Assembly: GCA_964016885.1 (NCBI GenBank)
Contig: OZ024759.1
Coordinates: 15,190,001-15,254,000, forward strand
From: Eledone cirrhosa
Taxonomy: Eukaryota
DNA: 64,000 nt
Reading direction: 5' to 3'
Numbering within the stretch: position 1 is the first letter of the stretch; the number at the start of each line of letters is the position of its first letter. The notes beneath the pieces were generated by a model. It made no database searches, had not been told where the DNA came from, and was given only the letters and a program-made list of their open reading frames with translations. Of the stretch, positions 1,653 to 61,110 are shown piece after piece. Made by a program: the position numbers and the translations under genes.

Positions 1653-2635
1653 TATAATAATAATAATAATATTAATACTGGTAATAATAACATTAGTGTA
1701 GATGATTCAAATTGGTGACACTACACCACGGCTACTACTAATACTTCTATGCAAACAATTGTCTTGCGTCTCCAGATCAAAAATCGATATTTAAAATTGA
1801 AAACGTACTAAAATATTATATTCGCATTTGATTATTATTTTCTCACTCAGCAGAAATGAGATATTTTTCACTTCGTGGAAGAAAAGTTAATATTAAAATA
1901 ATTACGCCTTCTCCTTGGGAGTAGGGAAACAAAATGGTATGAATATAATTACGTGCTTCCATGTAATAAATGCAAGGAACATAAATCCTTAATTTTACAT
2001 CTTGAAAGGTTTAGGCTTCGTAATTTTGCAATGACTTTCTGAAATATATAACCCCTATTATGGAGACAGGTGATGCTTATCTGAATACAGAACTCACAAG
2101 GCTGGAGCAGGTGTGACAATATATCTCGGTCTATGCTCTCGCATAGTTTCACAAGTTACACCTTTGGTCGGGTAATGTATTTATTGAGCATTAATAGTTG
2201 AAAGGTAATTTCGATTTCGACTAGATTTGAATAATAGAATCTGTTGTATTACTTTCAAATTAATATTAATCTCATCAAGCTGTGCGTAACATAGGATTAA
2301 ACATATGATGGTATTTAGATAAATATATAATCATATATCAGAGAACCATAGATGGTTTCATGTAATTTGGTTTCAAAACCTCCTCGCAACACCACCACCA
2401 TTATAATAATAAAAATAACCGCCACAAAACATATACTTATATATATGAATATATAATATAGAAATGGTTTCTACAGGACTAGAACTGTTTCATGTATTAA
2501 GTACCTTACTTACTGTGGTTACCCCCAATTGAAGCCAGGATACATACACACACACGGATCTAGCTATCGAAAAGGACGTGTCCCAGCCGTCGGGATCCTG
2601 ACTATTTTCCTATGTATATAAATACTAACTGAATT

Positions 2636-13786: not shown

Positions 13787-13964
13787 CAACTTGTTTATAG
13801 AATTCTTTCTGCCTTTGTTACTCTAAATATAAACTATAGCTTTGAAGAATTAGCTTTTAATGAATTCCCTTTTCTATCAACCAATGACCTACACCCATCC
13901 CACTCCCTACCCTCTCTTAACACCTGAAGAGACCTATAAATACCATATTTATTTTTTGATACCC

Positions 13965-14015
13965 AGATTCCTGATGATTTCTAAAGAATGAAACAGTTCT
14001 AGTCCTGTAGAATCT
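13965..14015 (+). ncRNA. type I hammerhead ribozyme, family B
   Basis: Stem I AGATTC/GAATCT; CTGATGA; stem II tTTC-TAAA-GAAt; GAA-ACAG-ttctagtc-CTGT-A (GUA site). Confidence 0.8.
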
Positions 14016-14027
14016 CATCTATATTAA

Positions 14028-14113
<86 letters not shown>

Positions 14114-15148: not shown

Positions 15149-15501
15149 GGAGGTGAGTTTTATTGTAGCAACAAACATCGGATAAGTAGCACTCTACAGT
15201 TTGTAAGACCGGAGTATAAATAATATAAGATCAAAAGATTGTTAAAAGAGCTCCAAGTATTTTATTATGCGCATTTCAAAAACAAATATCATCATGGGAT
15301 GATATTTGCGTTCTCATATATGTTGCGTTCTGATGGTATGTTGATTCAAAACTTCACTGCTCTCAAGTGTGTTTTAAACTACATATCATGTTTCCCCATT
15401 TTATCTGATGAGAACGAAAATATCATCCCATGATGATATTTGTTTTTGAAATGCGCATAATAAAATGCTTGGAATTCTTTTACCCATCTTTTCATCTTAT
15501 A

Positions 15502-15508
<7 letters not shown>
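15145..15508. mobile_element. PLE pLTR-like insert with inverted repeat, hammerhead family C
   Basis: 15220-15325 is the reverse complement of 15408-15505; homologous to 55338-55665; lies inside (TA)n. Confidence 0.75.
15399..15465 (+). ncRNA. type I hammerhead ribozyme, family C
   Basis: Stem I TTTTAT/ATAAAA; CTGATGA; stem II including AAATATCATC-CCAT-GATGATATTT; GAA-ATGCGCAT-A (palindromic stem III, AUA site). Confidence 0.85.
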
Positions 15509-15551
<43 letters not shown>

Positions 15552-18512: not shown

Positions 18513-20860
18513 TTTACCTGTCCCAGCCATCCGGCTGAGGCCTTGCTGGGGTACCGTCCTTGTTTCTACACATGTTATCTCCAGCCTGCATTGGTTGGCC
18601 ACAAGTGCAAGAGGGGGTTCGCTGCTGCTGCCCTTAGGTTTCCCTCGTGTCTTGTTGTGGGCTCATCCGGGATCCTGGATAGCAAGGTGTCGAGATGTTT
18701 CTTGAAGACATACACATCCACACCATGCTGATCTCTCAGATCCCTCGGCAGCTTGTTAAAGAGTTGAGGGCCCTTGAACCCCAGGCTATTTCAATATCTG
18801 CTCCTTATTCTAGATGTGGAAGATGGGATCTTTGGCACCACACAGTGACGTCCTGTTCGATGGTTGGTCCACCTCCCAATGCCAAAGTTTGGTGCTATTC
18901 CCTCCAGCATTTTCCAAATGTAGATCACTGCGTACCTCCCCGTCTTCGTTCCAAGTAGTAGAGGTTCAGTTCCTTTAGCCTCTCCCAGTATCTTGTCTCC
19001 TTCATCGTGGCAATACCTCTTGGTGTAGCTTCACTGGATTGCCTCAAGCTCCGTTTGACACTATGGGGTGACCATACCTGGGAGCAATAGCCCAGGCGGC
19101 TTAGGACAAATGTCGCCCATAGTTTCAACATGCTGTCTCGGTCTCTTGTCCCGAATGTCCTCAAGATCCAGCCAGCAAGCGTCTGCACATTGTCGCCACT
19201 TTCAGGATCTGTGAGGAAAAAGATGCATCATCGCTCATGTCTATACCCAGGTCTCGTATCGATTTCGACACGGGGATATCGGTCCCTCCTGATCCCGCGT
19301 AACTGTGTTTGCAGGTTTGCATTTTATGGCTTGGGACTTGCCAGCATTAAACTGCATGTATGTACTACAGAGGGCATGACTAAGAGAACCACCAAAAACA
19401 GCAGTGGTCCCAGGACTGTTCCATGGGGCACCCCACTTGTTATTTATGTTTCGTTTGAGAGGGCCCCGTTTGCTGCTACTGTCTGGCTTCTGTCCTTTAA
19501 GAAGTCATGCAACCACTCACCTACTTTTCCAGTTATGCCGAGTCCGTGTAGTTTGTGACATATCATTCCGTGGTCGATTTTGTCAAAGGCATTGCAAAGT
19601 GAAGATATATCAAGTCCACATGTGAGCTGTCTAGCAGTTGTTTCAGTACCCAGTCGTAATAATGTAGCAGCTGTGTAAGGCAGCTTCTTCCTGGGCGAAA
19701 GCCATGCTGTGTGCTAGTCAGGCGGTCATTTTCCTCGAGGAAAGTGATCAGTATCCTTCTGATGATTCGCTCCATGACCTTACTATTATGTGACGTTAGT
19801 GAGACTGGCCTATAGTTTTTGACCACCGCTCTGCTACCTCCTTTATGGATAGGGCATATTGTGCCTTCTTTCAGCTGCCTGGGTAGTATACCGCTAGCCA
19901 AGGAGCTTCTGAAGAGCGTCTTCAGTGGAGTTGCTAAGGCCCGCTTACATATTTTTAAGAGGACTGCTGAAAATCCATCAGGCTTGTTCTAATTTATTCT
20001 ATAGCGTATACCACGTCCTCCTCTGTTATGTCTATGTTGTTAATGGTCGCCATTTCTCCATGGAGTGTTGTGGCATCAAATAATTCCTCTGGCTTTGTTA
20101 TTTGCATGTGCCTCAGTGGACATGTGAACACACTTTTGTACTGTGCGTTCAGTATTTCACTTTTCTCTTGTGGATTCTCGGTTAATGAACCGTCTGTATG
20201 GAAGGGTGGCCCAATCTTGCAGTGTACTGAGGCAGTTTCTTTTGCAAATTTAAAGAAGGCCTAAGGGTTTGTTTTAATATTTTATATGGTCCTGCTTTCT
20301 TTCTTTGCCCTCTCATTTTCATGGGAAAGTTTCAGTGCAATCTCGGTGTCAAGTAGTGCACATTTCAAATAGGGTTCTTTCTTGTTATTGTTTTCTTGTT
20401 GTGCATTCAGCTGGTTTGAGAGCTTGGTTCTACGTCTCATAAGGATTTTCCTATCTCTGGGAATAAGATGTTTGTGCCTGTTGGCCTTTTTCTCCGGGAC
20501 AAACTTTTGGCGTATAGTGTGTATCGTCATGAAGTGTTGAAATTGTGTGTTGGTGTCTTGTGTAGTGGTGTTTTCGCTCCATATTTGCTTTCAGATTTCT
20601 CTCTTGATCTTTTCCCAGCTAGATGCCGGTGCTTCTTGATGGTTGTTTCTCTGTTGATTCTCTCGGACCACATATCTTCAGTTCTACTTAGTTATGATCC
20701 GAGAAAATTGTCGGTGTCACCTTTACATTGTGGATGAGCACTTCGTTGTTTGTAAAACAGAGGTCAAGGACATTCTCGCCTCTTGTTGGGAGAAGTACTG
20801 CTTGTTCCATGAATAGCCTGTGTGAGGGCCTGTCTCTGTTCTATTGATGTCATTCAAGGG
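18513..20860 (-). mobile_element. CR1-like LINE 3' part (RT), pseudogenised
   Basis: PIHKGGSR..NYRPVSLTS..QHGFRPGRSCLTQLL..GVPHGTVLGPLLFL..GWILRTF..YCSQVWSP..YWERLKELNLY. Confidence 0.92.
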
Positions 20861-23330: not shown

Positions 23331-23749
23331 ATACATATGTATATATATTGCGCATAATAAAATACATGGAACTCTTTTAACCATCTTTTGTTCTTATATA
23401 TTATATATATATATATAACGTTGAGAGAGATAGAAGGCTAAACAATGCAAAATGGACTGTAAGATGAGGTAACGAAAAGTAAAAGTTACCTGGTAATCTT
23501 TGTTTTGTTTTGTTGTCATTTTATCTGTCCAATATTTCGGAACCTAAATGTCCCTTCACCAGAGTTTAAGGAACCTTCAGTTGATGACTTTCCAATTTCT
23601 TCTCTTTGTGATAGAATATTGATTTCGTTTACATGTTTTTCTAAGTCGTTTTCAAGCGTTTTTCGATGGTACTTCGCTTTCCAGGCGCAAATTTCGCAGT
23701 ATGTCCAGAGTACAAGTGGCATGAAAATTGTCACTTATTTTTAGGAACG

Positions 23750-27815: not shown

Positions 27816-27858
<43 letters not shown>

Positions 27859-27863
<5 letters not shown>

Positions 27864-28066
27864 TTTATTTTATAGAAGGAGCTTCTACAGGACTAGTACT
27901 GTTTCATTCAGATGAAATCTTCAGGAAGCTTCCTGAAGATTTCATCTGAATGAAACAGTACTAGTCCTGTAGAAGCTCCTTCTATAAAATAAAAAAAATT
28001 TACTCTGCCATGTATTGAGTACCTTACTTACTGTGGTTATCCCCGACTCAACCCGGGACCTACGTA
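27859..28066. mobile_element. perfect ~140-bp palindrome carrying two family-B hammerheads, plus pLTR-like tail
   Basis: Centre aagctt at 27926-27931; AGCTTC-CTGAAGA-tTTCA-TC-TGAAt-GAA-ACAG..CTGT-A-GAAGCT. Confidence 0.85.
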
Positions 28067-28080
28067 TATATATATATATA

Positions 28081-28272
28081 TAATTGTTTCTACTTGTTGG
28101 CACAAGGCCAGCAATTATCCAGTGTATTACTGGTACTTTATTTTATCGACCCCGTAAGGATGAAATGCAAAGTTAACCTCGGCGGGATTTGAACTCAAAT
28201 CATAAAGGGAGCTAACACTATCCTTCAAAGCATGGTGTCCGACTCTCTACCGATACTGCCAATCCACCGTCC
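28081..28272 (-). mobile_element. tRNA-derived SINE
   Basis: Same family as 24081. Confidence 0.9.
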
Positions 28273-28381: not shown

Positions 28382-28501
28382 AAAAGAGTTACGACGCCGG
28401 CGGCTGAGCTCCGGTCGTTTCGACAGCTAGATCAGAACTGTCTGAGTTCGGATCTAGCTGTTGAAACGGCTGGAGCTCAGCCTTCGGGGTCCCGACTCTT
28501 T
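28382..28501. repeat. family-E fold-back element abutting the PLE RT
   Basis: ggctgagctcc..gtttcgacagctagatc...gatctagctgttgaaacggctggagctcagcc. Confidence 0.75.
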
Positions 28502-29895
28502 TGAGTACTCTGGTGACACATTTCCTAATAGTATAGTGGGTTTTCTTAAAAGGTTATGTTTTGCTGATCAGAGATTTTATGGTAGTTCCTCGCTTTTCTA
28601 CCACTTTAATCTTTAAGTGGGTCTTTCTCAGGGCCTTTCTACACAGGTCAGCTAATTTCCCTCCAGGGGTAGCGTCCACGAACATGACACTCTGGTATCT
28701 CTGGTTGTCGTACCATGAGGTTGCTTTCCCTATCTTATGTGTAGTCCTATCTAAGCTATTCCATGATTTGCTCCTGTATAATGGGCAAATTCCTTTCATG
28801 TCCAGTTGTATGAGGGTCTTATGCTTCTCCGTGGCTCCTTGGTATACTCTGACTCTGTCTCTTTGGTTGTAGCCAGAGAACTGCTTGCGGTTGATGAAGT
28901 GTTGGATGTGTCTTTCCACTTCTGTTGAGTCGCACATGCGGGACAGGTTCTTCATCACTCGTACCAAGTCTGCGATAAGAATATTAAACTTAGCACTACT
29001 GGACATTGCTGAGTTTTTGAGTATCAGGTATTTGGAGGCCAAGGGTTTAGCGTAGTGTGACTGGAGAATTTAGGCCCTCTCGTCTATAGTTTTATTCCAG
29101 AGTTCCGTGTCTAATACAGGTAGTCTACTGTTAGGGTGTTTCGAAGGGTAGTCGATAGTTACAGTTATACTCTGGTGTATGGAGTCAGCTATCTGCTGGA
29201 TGCTTTCCATTGGGCTACATTCTAAATCATATTTGTTAGTACTCTCTTGTGGGTGTGTCCCTATTACTATATTAATGTCGTCTACGTAACGAGAGTACAT
29301 GATGAGGTCTATGGAGCTCTCCTCAAGGAGATCTCTGAGTCCTCTTTCCCACAATCCCATAAAAAAGTTAGCAACGTCAACAGCTATGTTGACGCCTATG
29401 GCTGCTCCTTCATTTTGGGTGTAGATCTTTTCGTTGAATTTGTATATGTGGCCCTTTATGCTAGTTTTAATACTAGACCCTATTGCATGCGCGACCATTT
29501 TCTTACCTGATCATCGTTTTGGGGGGTCCGTACCGCTTAGGTCCACCCAATCCACCTTCCCATGGGTGTCCTTTTTGCCATTGATGTTATAGGGAGGGGG
29601 TCTATCTCTTATGGGTCTACTGGGACGGCTAAGGTCATGGTGTCATAGGTAAGTCTAAGTAGGAGGCCCAGTTCATCTGTGTCGACGGCGCAGAACTCCA
29701 CCTCAGTCTCACTGATCATCTCACACATTTTCCCACAGCAAAATCAATGTTAATGGATGGGTATAGTGATACCACGTCCATACTGCCTATTATGCAGTTA
29801 GATAGGTTTTTGTTGCACTCATTGATTCTGCTAAAGAGGCCCTCTGTACTGTCACATACATCTGGGGACATCTTGATTATGGGGCGTATAACCAT
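28502..29895 (-). pseudogene. Penelope-like (Neptune-type) reverse transcriptase, disrupted
   Basis: GSMDVVSLYPSI, YTQNEGAAIG, YSRYVDD, LPVLD, HYAKP, SGY, PLYRSKSW, FVDATPGGKL, KVVEKRG motifs; TAA stops and frameshifts. Confidence 0.88.
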
Positions 29896-29907
29896 ATATA
29901 TATATAT

Positions 29908-30100
29908 AACGAAGGAAGTGTGGTAAGGAACCAGATGGACCATAACGCACCAGAGTACTCAATACTTAGAGTAGTAGAGTGGGTAATAGGAGAAAGTATG
30001 ACCCCGACGGCAGAGCTCAAGCCGTTGAAACGGCTATTTCTGGACTGAAATAACCGTTGAAACGGCTTGAGCTCTGTCGCCGGGGTTAAACATTTTACTA
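29908..30100. repeat. family-E fold-back element
   Basis: aacgaaggaagtgtggtaaggaacc...gagctcaagccg...cggcttgagctc. Confidence 0.8.
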
Positions 30101-34262: not shown

Positions 34263-34620
34263 ACGCCATGCTTTGCAGCAAAGAGTTACGGCCCTTTATG
34301 ATCTGAGTTCAAATCACGCCGAGGTTAACTTTGCCTTTCATCCTTACGGGGTAGATACAATAAAGTACCAGTAATACACTGGAGTAATTGCTCACCGTGT
34401 GCCAAAAGTAGAAACAATTATTATTTATAATTGTTTCTACTTTAGGCACAAGGCCAGCAATTACTCCAGTGTATTACTGGTACTTTATTTTATCGATCCC
34501 ATAAGGATGAAAGGCAAAGGTAACCTCGGCGGGATTTGAACTCAGTGCGTAAAGGGACGTAACTCTATGCCGTAAAGCATGGCGTCCGACTCTTTAATGA
34601 TACTGCCAATCCACCACCCT
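34263..34620. mobile_element. two SINEs in tail-to-tail inverted orientation
   Basis: + copy 34263-34425, - copy 34428-34620. Confidence 0.9.
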
Positions 34621-36192: not shown

Positions 36193-36389
36193 GTATAGGA
36201 TTATCCAAGATGTAGTAATGGTTAATTACTACACTGATATGGTTGACGTACAGTAAGAGGTTACTCTACGAGTTATGGAAGAATTGTTGAAGAAACTTAG
36301 TTCCTGATCCTTCAGTATTCCGGAGTGTATAAGAATATAAAGAATGAATAATAACAGGTAGACATCATAAAAAGGTAATTTATTCCGTG

Positions 36390-36501
36390 TGCTTACAAGT
36401 GTTTCCACGGTGGTACTGCAGCCTAGTTATGCTACGTGCAAATTCACAAGTACTTGCAGAACTCAAATATCCAATGCTGTGACCACTGTTTCCTCAGAGC
36501 A
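36390..36501 (-). ncRNA. type I hammerhead ribozyme, family F (long stem II)
   Basis: On - strand: TGCT-CTGAGGA-aACAGTGGT...ACCACCGTg-GAA-ACACTTGT-A-AGCA. Confidence 0.8.
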
Positions 36502-36559
36502 GAATGTAAGCACACGGAATAAATTACCTTTTTATGATGTCTACCTGATATTATTCATT

Positions 36560-36595
<36 letters not shown>

Positions 36596-37780: not shown

Positions 37781-37809
<29 letters not shown>

Positions 37810-37812
<3 letters not shown>

Positions 37813-38006
37813 CGAAGGAAATGTGGTAAGGAACCAGGTGGACCATAACGCACCAAAGTACTCAATACTTGAGGTAGTAGAGTGGGTAATAGGAACCAGT
37901 AAGACCCCGACAGCTGAGCTCAAGCCGTTTCGACGGCTAATTCTGGACCAGAATTAGCCGTCGAAACGGCTTGAGCTCAGCTGTCGGGGTCTTACTGGTT
38001 CCTATA
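37810..38006. repeat. family-E fold-back element (perfect palindrome 37888-38006)
   Basis: Centre ctgg-a-ccag at 37947. Confidence 0.9.
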
Positions 38007-41210: not shown

Positions 41211-41344
41211 TGTAATAAACAGCATAAGGCAATTATTCCATTTACCAGTGGTTTCTTAAAAGCAAAAGATTTGCTTTCAATCCTCAGAATAAAAAAATCT
41301 TGGTCTGTTTATTGAATTTTGATTTTAAAAACAAAAATGCAATC

Positions 41345-42796: not shown

Positions 42797-43014
42797 TTAT
42801 GTAATAAGCAACACAATACAATTATACCATTTACCAAAGGTTTCACGAAGACAGGCGAGCTCAACAGAAAAGTCTGAAGTCGTTCATCAAAATGAAAATG
42901 TTCATATTAAAATGTTCTTTCTGATGAACGATTTCAGACGTCTCTGTTGAGCTCGCCTGTCTTCGGGAAACCTTTGGTAAATGTAATAATTGTCTTATGT
43001 TGTTTATTACATAA

Positions 43015-43015: not shown

Positions 43016-43050
<35 letters not shown>

Positions 43051-43053
<3 letters not shown>

Positions 43054-43175
43054 GTTATTCCGGGTTGAATCGGAGGTAACAGTAAGTAAGGTACTCAATA
43101 CATTGCAGAGTATAAAAGTTTTAATATAGATGAGATTCTACAGGACTAGAACTGTTTCATTCTTTAGAAATCATC
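43051..43175 (-). mobile_element. family-B pLTR-like fragment, truncated within the CUGAUGA core
   Basis: Reverse complement of 13973-14025 plus the tail shared with 28000-28066. Confidence 0.7.
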
Positions 43176-44239
43176 GTTTTCATTTATCCATGATAAATAT
43201 TTTAATATTTTGACGATAATGTGGGATTGTTTCCTTTACAACAAATCCCGCAGGAGGTGTGGACTCGTGTCTTTTAAAATCCCTTTTGTTATATAGATAT
43301 TTCGTGCAATAATGTAGGTAGATATAAAAGATGTGTTTAAGTTGTGATGAGAGAAATCCATTTGTAATTGTTTTAAGTTTTTGATTAAAGGTTTCGAAAT
43401 CGAATTATATAAAAGCATCAATAGAAATTGTATTTGATAAATATTCTTTACACAGAAGTTCTTTACTTTCTTTAAATGCATTGCAATTAGTTTCAGATGA
43501 CTTCTCCAATTACATTACTAGATTCGCTGTATCTAATGATCTATGTTCGTTAGATATACAATCATTCAATTGCTACGAAATGTACTTTTACATATAGAAT
43601 GCGAAATATATCATCATATATTGATCACGTTATTATTCCAAACAAAGACTTCTTTTACTGATGCTGCAATTTATTTGAAATAATGTAAAGTACGTGAAGA
43701 ACATATAAATAACCATAGTTATTATACACCACTTCAAGTTTCAATGTCTAATCATGTATTCAGAAATCGATACAGCTAGCACAAAATAAAATATTTGTGA
43801 TATTTCGCGGAAGATATATCAAAATACAATCAATTTGTTAATACGTTTTTATATCAACATGAATTTCTCTTACAGATTGATCAACTACGTATATTTGTTA
43901 TTAATGTGTTATAATAAACTAAACGACAAACATATTTTTTATATAAACAATGATGTCTCGAAGGTGATGTGCGAGTATTTTAGAATTCATAAGAGAAACC
44001 AGAAAAACTGAACGAAAGAAGTGCTGTTAAAGCAGCAAAATGACGACAGGTTGAAGTTTTAAAAGCTTTTCTTGCGTTGAGTTTTTCTCATTATTCTATA
44101 GAGTTTTTTTAATAATATCAGTAAACAATCTAAAGCTTATGAAATAAAATATATGAAATATCTAAACCGATTGTGGAGTTGCAGAACAGATGAACAAATA
44201 TATACAATCAAGAAGAAAATTGTGCCAATTTTAATACCC

Positions 44240-51109: not shown

Positions 51110-51147
<38 letters not shown>

Positions 51148-51150
<3 letters not shown>

Positions 51151-51246
51151 CGGAAGAAATGTGGTAAGCAACCAGGTGGACCATAACGTCCAGAATTAGC
51201 CGTCGAAACGGCTTCAGCTCAGCCGTCGGGGTCCTACTCGTTCCTA
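51148..51246. repeat. family-E element, internally deleted
   Basis: aacggaagaaatgtggtaagcaaccaggtggaccataacg joined to tccagaattagccgtcgaaacgg. Confidence 0.75.
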
Positions 51247-51318: not shown

Positions 51319-51654
51319 ATGGTGTTGTACAGCATAAGATGTACAGAGAGTACTTCTTGCAGAAACATGACCACAACATACATAAGCGAGACAGCTCGTA
51401 GCATAGGTGAAAGGATAGACCAACACTGGGGAGAACTAAAAGGACGAAAAGACGGTTCAGTACTATACGAACATGCCAGACAACAACACAACGGTAACAT
51501 AGACAACAAAGAAGTTAGAATAATATCTAAGCATAGAAATGACCCAGCAGATATGCAAATCGGAGAGGCCAGTGAAATAGAACTTAGAAGGCCAAGGCTA
51601 AACAGAAAAATGAATGGAATAACAACAACACCCAAACAAACCACACTGACCTAA
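51319..51654 (+). pseudogene. Penelope-like GIY-YIG endonuclease fragment (5'-truncated PLE)
   Basis: VLYSIRC....C.....YISETARSIGERIDQH...SVLYEH...H...EASEI....PRLN matches the PLE GIY-YIG pattern. Confidence 0.85.
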
Positions 51655-51908
51655 GAGAAGTATAAATAAATAAATAAATACATACACAAGCACCATAACA
51701 ACAAATACATATAAACACACACTAGTAAACTAAGATAGAATACATTAACCAATACACAGTCACCCAAACAAGAACACACATCAAACAAAACACTATACAC
51801 ACACGCAAACGCATGCGCAGAGAAGACAAAAAAATAAACAAATAAATAAATAAACAGACTAAATAAAGATGGCGTAAGCATACAATGCAACGGGAGGAAA
51901 CATAATAG

Positions 51909-51952
51909 CACCAATGACGATGTTGCAGATATGCAACGAAATAACTTTGTTA
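51909..51952 (+). ncRNA. hammerhead-like motif, family I, in the 3' region downstream of the GIY-YIG fragment
   Basis: ATGACGA-t-GTTGCA-GATA-TGCAAC-GAAA; homologous to 41759-41850 with covarying stem II. Confidence 0.55.
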
Positions 51953-52168
51953 GACTATATATATGTGTTTGTGTCTATATTGTATCTGTATTTTTTACCG
52001 TTGGTCAGTCAATGGTAACATTGTGGACCGAATAAATTAAATTAACTGATATAAAAGATACAGAAGCGAAAACCAATCAAACAGTGAGTGTGTTCTGTTA
52101 TTAATTCTGGCAATATTACACAAATATGACCCTCCCCAAGCATATATATATATATATATATATATGCA

Positions 52169-54424: not shown

Positions 54425-54617
54425 AGGAACGAGTAGGACCCCGACGGCTGAGCTCAAGCCGTTTCGACGGCTAGTTCTGGACTGAACTAGCCGTCGAAAC
54501 GGCTTGAGCTCAGCCGTCGGGGTCCTACTCGTTCCTATTACCCACTCTACTACCCTAAGTATTGAATAATTTGGTGCGTTATGGTCCACCTGGTTCCTTA
54601 CCACATTTCCTTCGTTA
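54425..54617. repeat. family-E fold-back element
   Basis: Palindrome 54425-54535 plus unique tail. Confidence 0.9.
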
Positions 54618-54669
54618 TATATATATATATATATATATATATGTCTGTGTGTGAGTGTGTGAGTGTGTG

Positions 54670-55035: not shown

Positions 55036-55118
55036 TATATATATATATATATATAAATATAATTACAAAGTGACATAAACAGGTACTCAAGTTTCGTTGG
55101 GCTCTGGTCCCCAATTTG

Positions 55119-55168
55119 ACAGGCTGAATGAATTGGGGCCCAGAACCCAACGAAACTTGAGTACCTGT
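55119..55168 (+). ncRNA. type I hammerhead ribozyme, family G (8-nt core CUGAAUGA)
   Basis: ACAGG-CTGAATGA-aTTGGG-gcccagaa-CCCAAc-GAA-ACTTGAGT-A-CCTGT; lies in the inverted repeat 55061-55188. Confidence 0.75.
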
Positions 55169-55277
55169 TTATGTCACTGTTGTAATTATTTATACTTAAC
55201 TCGTCCAATGGACTGAGTGCTCTTACCCTTTGATATTTCCACCTAACCTTTACTACAGTGTATATATACACACACAC

Positions 55278-55337
<60 letters not shown>

Positions 55338-55343
<6 letters not shown>

Positions 55344-55660
55344 AGATCAAAAGATGGTTAAAGGAGTTCCATGTATTTTATTATGCGCATTTCAAAAACA
55401 AACATCATCATGCAATAATATTTGTGTTTTCATCAGAATGTTCTCCTGTTTTCATCAGAATGTTCTCCTGTTTTATCTGATGAAAACACAAATATTATTG
55501 CATGATGATATTTGTTTTTGAAATGCGCATAATAAAATACATGGAACTCCTTTAACCATCTTTTGATCTTATATTATGTATACTCCAGTCCTACAAACTG
55601 TAGAGTGCTTCTTATCCGATATCTGCATTGCTTTATTGTACTACAATAAAACTCACCTCC

Positions 55661-55900: not shown

Positions 55901-56059
55901 ATATTCATTAGTTAAGCAAAACAAGACCACAGACTTCACAAGGAAGACATTATTAAAATATTATTATTCTCTACATTCCTTACATCAAACTAAAATATGT
56001 TGACAATATTTTAATAATGTCTTCCTTGTGAAGTTTGTGGTCTTGTTTTGCTTAACTAA

Positions 56060-56065
<6 letters not shown>
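55901..56065. repeat. ~60-bp inverted repeat ending at (TA)n
   Basis: atattcattagttaagcaaaacaagacc...ggtcttgttttgcttaactaatgaatat. Confidence 0.85.
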
Positions 56066-58863: not shown

Positions 58864-58908
<45 letters not shown>

Positions 58909-58910
<2 letters not shown>

Positions 58911-59074
58911 ACGAAGGAAATGTGGTATGGAACCAGGTAGACCATAACGCACCAAAGTACTCAATACTTAGGGTAGTAGAGTGGGTAATAGGAACGAGTA
59001 GGACCCCAACGGCTGGACTGTCCAGAATTAGCTGTCGAAACGGCTTGAGCTCAGCCGTCGGGGTCCTACTCGTT

Positions 59075-59078
<4 letters not shown>
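58909..59078. repeat. family-E element with central deletion
   Basis: Homology to 37810-38006. Confidence 0.85.
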
Positions 59079-60914: not shown

Positions 60915-61110
60915 TAACGAAGGAGTTGTGTTAAGGTACTAGGTGGACCATAACACACCAGAGTACTCAATACTTAGGGTAGTAGAGAGGGTAATGGGAA
61001 AATGTATGACCCCGACGTTCAGGCTCAAGCTGTTTCGACGGCTATTTCTGGACTACATATAGCCGTCGAAACAGCTTGAGCTCTGCCGTCGGGGTCATAC
61101 ATTTTCTTAT
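60915..61110. repeat. family-E fold-back element
   Basis: Homology to 37810-38006. Confidence 0.85.

Follow-up and report, generated by a model that had tools for sequence, protein, structure and literature searches.

A perfect palindrome with opposed hammerhead motifs in Eledone cirrhosa, very probably a dead insertion of a Penelope-like element (PLE) pseudo-LTR

The palindrome and the insert around it

The window analyzed here is a 64,000-nucleotide stretch of the Eledone cirrhosa assembly GCA_964016885.1 (contig OZ024759.1, forward-strand positions 15,190,001 to 15,254,000), and all positions below are counted from its first letter. Positions 27859-27998 are identical to their own reverse complement at 140 of 140 bases, as the first-pass annotation had claimed, and they exceed every other perfect palindrome in the window in length, the runner-up being a 68-bp palindrome centered on (TA)n; in 20 base-shuffled windows the longest palindrome by chance was 14-26 bp. 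The whole insert is about 206 bp long and consists of an inverted 5'-truncated arm, a sense arm and a one-sided tail, with (TA)n on both flanks, within which a target-site duplication is unreadable. The features of the locus are:

27819-27858, no strand: left target, a (TA)n microsatellite plus an extra T
27859-27998, no strand: perfect 140-bp palindrome, the symmetric part of the insert
27859-27930, minus: inverted 5'-truncated arm, from the first base of proximal stem I to the family's first 3' end (an A-run)
27880-27930, minus: type I hammerhead motif of the minus arm, predicted cut after the A at 27886, distal helix I missing
27927-27930, no strand: AGCT micro-palindrome, the first four bases of stem I, common to both arms (junction microhomology)
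27927-27977, plus: type I hammerhead motif of the plus arm, predicted cut after A27971
27955-27970, plus: near-palindromic helix III, self-complementary at 14 of 16 bases, with a dimer duplex predicted at -15.2 kcal/mol
27999-28064, plus: one-sided tail of 60-66 bp with two predicted hairpins, its end being the family's second 3' end; homologues at 43112-43060 and 2491-2540
28065-28082, no strand: right target, a (TA)n microsatellite

The other loci of the same family in the window are:

2456-2540, no strand: second head-to-head junction, with the hammerhead 3' half 2493-2456 (minus) joined to the tail 2491-2540 (plus)
13790-14030, plus: longest family copy, ending at the first 3' end in (TA)n, with no tail and no inverted arm; its hammerhead begins at 13965
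43050-43175, minus: family copy truncated inside the core (starts GATGA), running through the tail into (TA)n

The axis of the palindrome lies in AAG|CTT at 27926-27931 and overlaps the 5' strand of stem I, in agreement with the AAGCTT center proposed earlier. The native base upstream of stem I is C, both in the 13965 copy and in the loose ends before 27927 in public run X4, so the outer A at 27926 derives from the inversion and the natural micro-palindrome is AGCT. The terminal runs of the two arms are unequal, with T12 at the left end (plus strand) and A8 in the other arm, a difference of four extra T. The coordinates given in the first-pass annotation are right for the palindrome itself and too narrow as limits of the feature, since the plus arm continues into the 27999-28064 tail, which is absent from the minus arm. 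The claim of a recent event stands insofar as the arms are identical, while the bound that this sets is loose, zero differences in 70 bp being compatible with a divergence between the arms as high as about 4% (95% bound). A 71-nt contig of public run X5 (record 22) equals 27927-27997 with zero differences and has different letters upstream; together with the identity of the arms, this places the insertion in a young subfamily.

Hammerhead motifs and their predicted folding

At the level of sequence the hammerhead reading holds, both arms containing the type I core elements CUGANGA, GAAA and NUH with A15.1-U16.1. In the plus arm a 6-bp stem I (AGCUUC/GAAGCU) is followed by the core CUGAAGA, a stem II made of a U-U and 3 bp (UUC/GAA) under a tetraloop, then GAAA, a 4-bp stem III and GUA; the positions given earlier for the GUA cleavage triplet fit predicted cuts after A27971 and, in the other copy, after A14009. 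The three stems around the core can form (6, 3 and 4 bp), yet the fold is not that of minimum energy, an isolated single arm preferring another fold at -9.8 kcal/mol to the hammerhead at -6.7 kcal/mol. The U-U reported at the base of stem II is present in both the 27927 and 13965 copies, in place of a purine-pyrimidine pair at 10.1-11.1, and is not disqualifying. It has natural precedents in the parts of two papers drawn on here, one describing U10.1-U11.1 as a natural hammerhead variant (PMC3088659) and the other showing a U-U at the helix II base of the axolotl hammerhead HHR_Amex2 (PMC7229834). Searches with Rfam gave no hammerhead match at the gathering score in the window and none at E<=10 in the right arm, and in another Rfam scan the 150 matches listed of 530 were microsatellite-driven microRNA matches alone.

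The 27927 and 13965 copies differ at 8 of 51 positions: the two of a compensating pair in stem I, N7, four loop II bases and one loop III base. All eight differences spare the core and every pair, an outcome reached by random placement in 0.07% of 200,000 trials, and sparing so far beyond chance indicates that selection has acted on the fold in this family. Covariation in stem I, as originally noted, is thus present as one double change (C-G versus A-U), but the covariation also claimed for stem II is not: the UUC/GAA pairs are invariant and its four differences all fall in the 4-nt loop (AUCU versus UAAA), where a putative fourth pair would leave a loop of just 2 nt. T27947C, which occurs in reads of other family copies, is not a compensating change either.

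The description of a complete ribozyme on each strand is correct for the type I core in each arm and fails on completeness. In the 13965 copy distal helix I provides eight further pairs beyond an internal loop, its 5' strand coming from the native upstream sequence, whereas both arms of the palindrome lack this strand, and with it the distal helix I and loop 1 for tertiary contact, which leaves each ribozyme incomplete. Moreover, a read-through RNA from either strand would contain the perfect antisense of the ribozyme ahead of the ribozyme itself, and it is therefore predicted to form one hairpin, at -126.8 kcal/mol compared with -48.0 kcal/mol when the hammerhead stems are enforced; the mean probability of the hammerhead pairs in the computed fold is about 1e-17. 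With the hairpin 79 kcal/mol below the ribozyme fold, the implication of two working ribozymes, one per strand, is unsupported, and cleavage at 27859-27998 in a read-through transcript would be unlikely. The helix III, with its 14 of 16 self-complementary bases, is by the duplex prediction built for dimers. The hammerheads at the palindrome are most likely passengers copied from the element, and the long double-stranded hairpin, if transcribed, would more plausibly feed small-RNA silencing; at most 7% of the words of the stretch are present in the public RNA runs.

Relatives of the insert in the window and in public runs

The first 3' end of the family, an A-run, is common to the 27859 arm and to the copies 13965-14030 and 2493-2456, and 13 contigs of public run X4 end at 27993 in (TA)n. 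Ends thus recur both before and after the tail, so that the family has two 3' ends which bound it. The 5' ends are more scattered: among six family arms in the window the start point is base 1 of stem I in two, both in the palindrome, and +9, +24, within the tail and 175 nt upstream in the others, a dispersal in four of six arms that counts against a fixed stop at stem I. At the second head-to-head junction (2456-2540) the overlap is 3 nt, and the arms share nothing beyond it. None of the four family loci in the window is in a head-to-tail tandem and none has an attached ORF that would point to an autonomous partner; nor did any PLE protein match with a meaningful E-value lie around the other loci of the family in the window. 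Directly upstream of the copy at 43175, 43180-43520 (minus) is a frame that stays mostly open for about 110 codons, interrupted by a single internal stop, with no PLE protein match. Pattern scans for the family in metagenome contigs and in viral contigs gave no match in either.

Inverted repeats are common in the window, which contains 14 local ones with arm identities of 72-100% after masking of simple repeats. A scanned hammerhead core is present in three of the 14 (27859-27998, 15219-15506 and 55338-55575), and several have a one-sided tail. A second hammerhead family (15180-15510, 55311-55618 and 23349-23417) has a long helix II, a minimal helix III and an AUA triplet; each of its two full copies consists of an inverted pair, joined head-to-head, and a tail of about 38 bp on one side, and there is a short tandem duplication at the 55437-55480 junction. 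A third palindromic family (37808-38002, 54425-54619, 58907-59078, 60915-61106, 29905-30094, 28382-28502 and 51146-51245) has head-to-head arms of about 110 bp, 79-99% identical, with a one-sided tail of about 85 bp into (TA)n. Its pivot lies near GTCCAGAA, at about the same place in most copies, a near-constancy that may reflect a defined 5' end of an RNA; the core scan found no hammerhead in this family, and Rfam no match. The segments 42797-43014 and 41294-41206 (minus) form an inverted pair with 87% arms and hammerhead-core-like motifs recognized by eye, which adjoins the copy at 43050-43175 and is related to a scanned motif at 41287. Further inverted repeats lie at 55059-55189 (with a one-sided tail), 55905-56062, 36340-36562 and 44001-44088, three of them beside (TA)n. 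An abundant SINE-like repeat of about 190 bp, with what we take to be a tRNA B-box-like motif on its minus strand, occurs at 28080-28270 and about 20 other places, with an inverted pair at 34263-34585.

Fragments of PLE coding sequence are also present in the window:

28518-29904, minus: broken PLE reverse-transcriptase fragment, 67% to an Octopus vulgaris protein
51322-51609, plus: fragment of a GIY-YIG endonuclease of PLE type, whose 3' region contains a degenerate hammerhead-like motif of a different kind

Relatives of these fragments bear a C-terminal GIY-YIG. The reverse-transcriptase fragment is bordered by a different repeat family, and none of the PLE fragments in the window is attached to the hammerhead family of the palindrome. 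Two copies of the GIY-YIG 3' region, 51860-52015 (plus) and 41850-41702 (minus), have a minimal-hammerhead-like motif with a G-C helix II base, in which the first core base is not C. Between 17080 and 20600 there are LINE-like fragments on both strands, comprising endonuclease-like and reverse-transcriptase stretches, with Pfam RVT_1 at 19563-19988.

Contigs of public runs were placed on a 451-bp stretch around the locus, 4,678 from run X1 and 5,491 from run X4, the latter under another organism label, and contig depth was not taken as copy number. Of 25 joints 15 are listed, and all 15 read as head-to-head, with a hammerhead arm joined to another arm or to the tail: seven lie within the hammerhead region, eight run from the hammerhead arm to the tail start, and in three the arm reaches the stem I edge. 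The listed joints are mostly short-sided (21-28 letters in 12 "skip" rows) and from other copies, and several alignment ends fall at subfamily divergence, so that the joints show inversion to be common and give no exact map of pivots; the table of arm limits was likewise left unused as a pivot map because many of the alignments stop in loop II, which is variable. A pivot almost identical to that of the palindrome is crossed by two contigs, X4 record 9 (27902-28001, six differences, no gap) and X1 record 7 (27901-27976, two differences, two gaps), which reach 27 and 28 letters to the left of it, both below the 31-letter bar. No contig among those listed bridges the center with 31 letters on each side or spans the stretch, so the exact locus rests on the assembly. 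Such a missing bridge is to be expected if, as we reason, a word-graph contig of a perfect palindrome cannot pass its center by more than about 15 letters. Next to the pivot, position 27930 is the end point of 90 of some 172 molecules in the RAD-seq run X23, probably at a restriction site; these ends were set aside as evidence, since a restriction site would give the same pattern.

Origin of the insert

We regard it as very probable that the palindrome is a dead, doubly 5'-truncated insertion of the pseudo-LTR (pLTR) of a Penelope-like retrotransposon, or PLE, made of two head-to-head repeat copies with ribozymes that are predicted to be shut off. The insertion unit of endonuclease-positive PLEs, as set out in the sections of Craig et al. 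2021 (PMC8557442) used here, comprises an inverted 5'-truncated copy beside a pLTR, a tail at one end, a bias toward microsatellites and a hammerhead in the pLTR, and inverted PLE junctions show overlaps and junction palindromes, with a TATA-initiator pair in one pLTR (Arkhipova et al. 2013, PMC3846280, in part). At our locus there is likewise a head-to-head inverted 5'-truncated copy with a short junction overlap, a one-sided tail and a hammerhead inside the repeat, with (TA)n microsatellite on both sides; the first-pass annotation passed over this signature, although a palindrome with a one-sided tail in a (TA)n target is a standard PLE insertion by the account in PMC8557442. The locus differs from the units in print, as far as those portions describe them, in having no ORF left and a tail of 60-66 bp rather than 30-40 bp, and, because both arms are cut at the same base, its palindrome is perfect, unlike theirs.

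The motif itself can be compared with the type I hammerheads of PLEs, for which the available portion of Cervera and de la Pena 2014 (PMC4209133) describes the same topology, a palindromic helix III, an AU-rich distal helix I, a mostly solitary occurrence and residence in pLTRs. Dual minimal hammerheads on opposite strands, 100-700 bp apart, are already reported there. The metazoan consensus in that source combines a minimal helix III with a long helix II that has G10.1-C11.1, whereas the present family has a weak helix II (the U-U plus 3 bp) and a 4-bp helix III, the latter closer to the fungal and protist variants with a large helix III. The axolotl HHR_Amex2 and the non-LTR retrozymes, in the part consulted of Cervera and de la Pena 2020 (PMC7229834), share with it the type I topology, a more stable helix III and the U-U, but those retrozymes are head-to-tail tandems expressed as circles. 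With the Poseidon element PAc of Anolis carolinensis, characterized in vitro (Frangieh et al. 2024, PMC11167929, in part), the locus has in common two 3' ends bounding a tail and an AT-rich target. The ORF of PAc starts within the hammerhead, while here the ATGs of hammerhead and tail meet stops within five codons.

The Anolis work also suggests how the two arms could have been made, since in the portion of PMC11167929 drawn on the PLE protein cleaves and extends both target strands, which fits the two arms here, and reverse transcription starts at two internal sites bounding the tail. By analogy, a PLE reverse transcriptase-endonuclease would nick the (TA)n target on each strand, with one 3'-OH priming a cDNA at the tail start to give the minus arm without tail and the other priming a cDNA at the tail end to give the plus arm with tail; both cDNAs would stop at the first base of stem I, where their self-complementary AGCT 3' ends could anneal and be filled in. 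The joining of two cDNAs is a step that we propose beyond the PAc account in that portion. This route predicts the geometry seen, an antisense arm without tail on the top strand and with tail on the bottom strand, and slippage during priming is compatible with the four extra T on the left. As an exact sequence of events we hold it tentatively, at a little below an even chance.

Within the same PLE origin, the joining step alone might instead have been a snap-back, with the inverted arm made by self-priming of a single cDNA, or of an antisense template, at AGCT. Junction palindromes are read as self-priming on an antisense template in the part of Arkhipova et al. 2013 (PMC3846280) considered here, and the AGCT micro-palindrome at the pivot would suit such a step, but four palindromic nucleotides cannot fold back into a hairpin of their own. 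Apart from 3 nt, moreover, the arms joined at 2491-2493 have no sequence in common, and in 8 of the 15 listed joints the hammerhead arm passes straight into the tail start; fold-back copying cannot make such non-overlapping arms without a jump, and by their sequence the arms at 2456-2540 are a better fit to two cDNAs. We therefore consider a snap-back unlikely, though not negligible. No relevant literature was found on head-to-head joining by target-primed synthesis on both strands or on twin priming.

It is considerably less probable that the element is non-autonomous, retrozyme-like or MITE-like, with the palindrome itself as the spreading unit. The very high copy number with no linked ORF seen, the two contigs (X4 record 9, X1 record 7) that cross nearly the same pivot, and the derivation of animal retrozymes from PLE pLTRs reported in the accessible part of bioRxiv 2026.07.22.740005 would all accord with it. 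Head-to-tail tandems, the defining retrozyme form, are however found at none of the four family loci in the window, the copies differ in their ends and junctions, and the X5 contig is a non-palindromic copy identical to one arm. A fold-back artefact of assembly or library is very improbable, even though the arms have zero mismatches, the flanks are microsatellites and no listed record bridges the center by 31 letters or spans the stretch: the mirror stops exactly at the 3' end used by other copies (13965-14030, 2493-2456 and the 13 X4 contigs), the T and A runs differ in length between the arms, older and diverged palindromes of the same build (arm identity 72-99%) fill the window, a contig filed under a second organism label extends 27 letters across this pivot, and the missing bridge is what we would expect of word-graph contigs. 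Least credible of all is a functional ambisense device, transcribed and self-cleaving on both strands in the style of a viroid-like replicon, for which the intact cores on both strands and the conservation of the motif at family level might speak, but which faces the vanishing probability of the hammerhead pairs, the missing distal helix I, the preference of a lone arm for another fold, the inactivity of a PLE hammerhead assayed as a monomer (PMC4209133, in part) and the protein requirement of the Anolis one (PMC11167929, in part), conservation among family copies being uninformative on this locus.

For a PLE insertion built from two cDNAs, one important consideration is why both should stop at the same base. 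Upstream of the hammerhead, the 13790-14030 copy has CCAAT at 13881, TATAAA at 13935 (30 nt before stem I) and an initiator-like CCAGATT whose A, at 13965, is the first base of hammerhead stem I. The X4 loose-end consensus has a CATAAA variant 29 nt before stem I, and the TATA/initiator reading is drawn from this consensus and the one window copy, with the TATA-to-start spacing rule and the initiator consensus as its background. The chance of a TATA hexamer at one of five offsets is about 0.5%, for a pattern noticed after the fact. That the cDNAs stopped at stem I because these motifs place an RNA 5' end there seems doubtful to us. Less likely still is the fuller version, in which the pivot would be the 5' end of an element RNA initiated from a pLTR promoter and devoid of distal helix I, at which two opposite-strand cDNAs would run off and join via AGCT; jointly with this, and at the same low probability, the ribozyme would be off at the 5' repeat and whole only in the read-through 3' repeat. 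No literature match was found for a TATA and transcription start in a pLTR promoter, though Schostak et al. 2008 (Penelope promoter) may already place the start, and among the passages covered there was no relevant match for a transcription start site together with a hammerhead.

Taken alone, the locus at 27859-28064 is of little importance, inverted stumps being numerous in this repeat-rich, octopus-like genome. What it offers is a clear illustration of how PLE insertions are arranged and, in addition, a hammerhead family of high copy number whose helix II is weak and has a U-U at its base; we found no cephalopod description of such a hammerhead family in the literature, though supplement file 1 of PMC4209133 and the supplements of the bioRxiv report may hold cephalopod motifs. 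If the pivot were the RNA 5' end, it would explain how head-to-head PLE insertions arise from a sense template and would give the PLE hammerhead a positional on/off logic, and, were it a transcription start, both the mechanism of PLE head-to-head inversion and the role of the PLE hammerhead would become testable.
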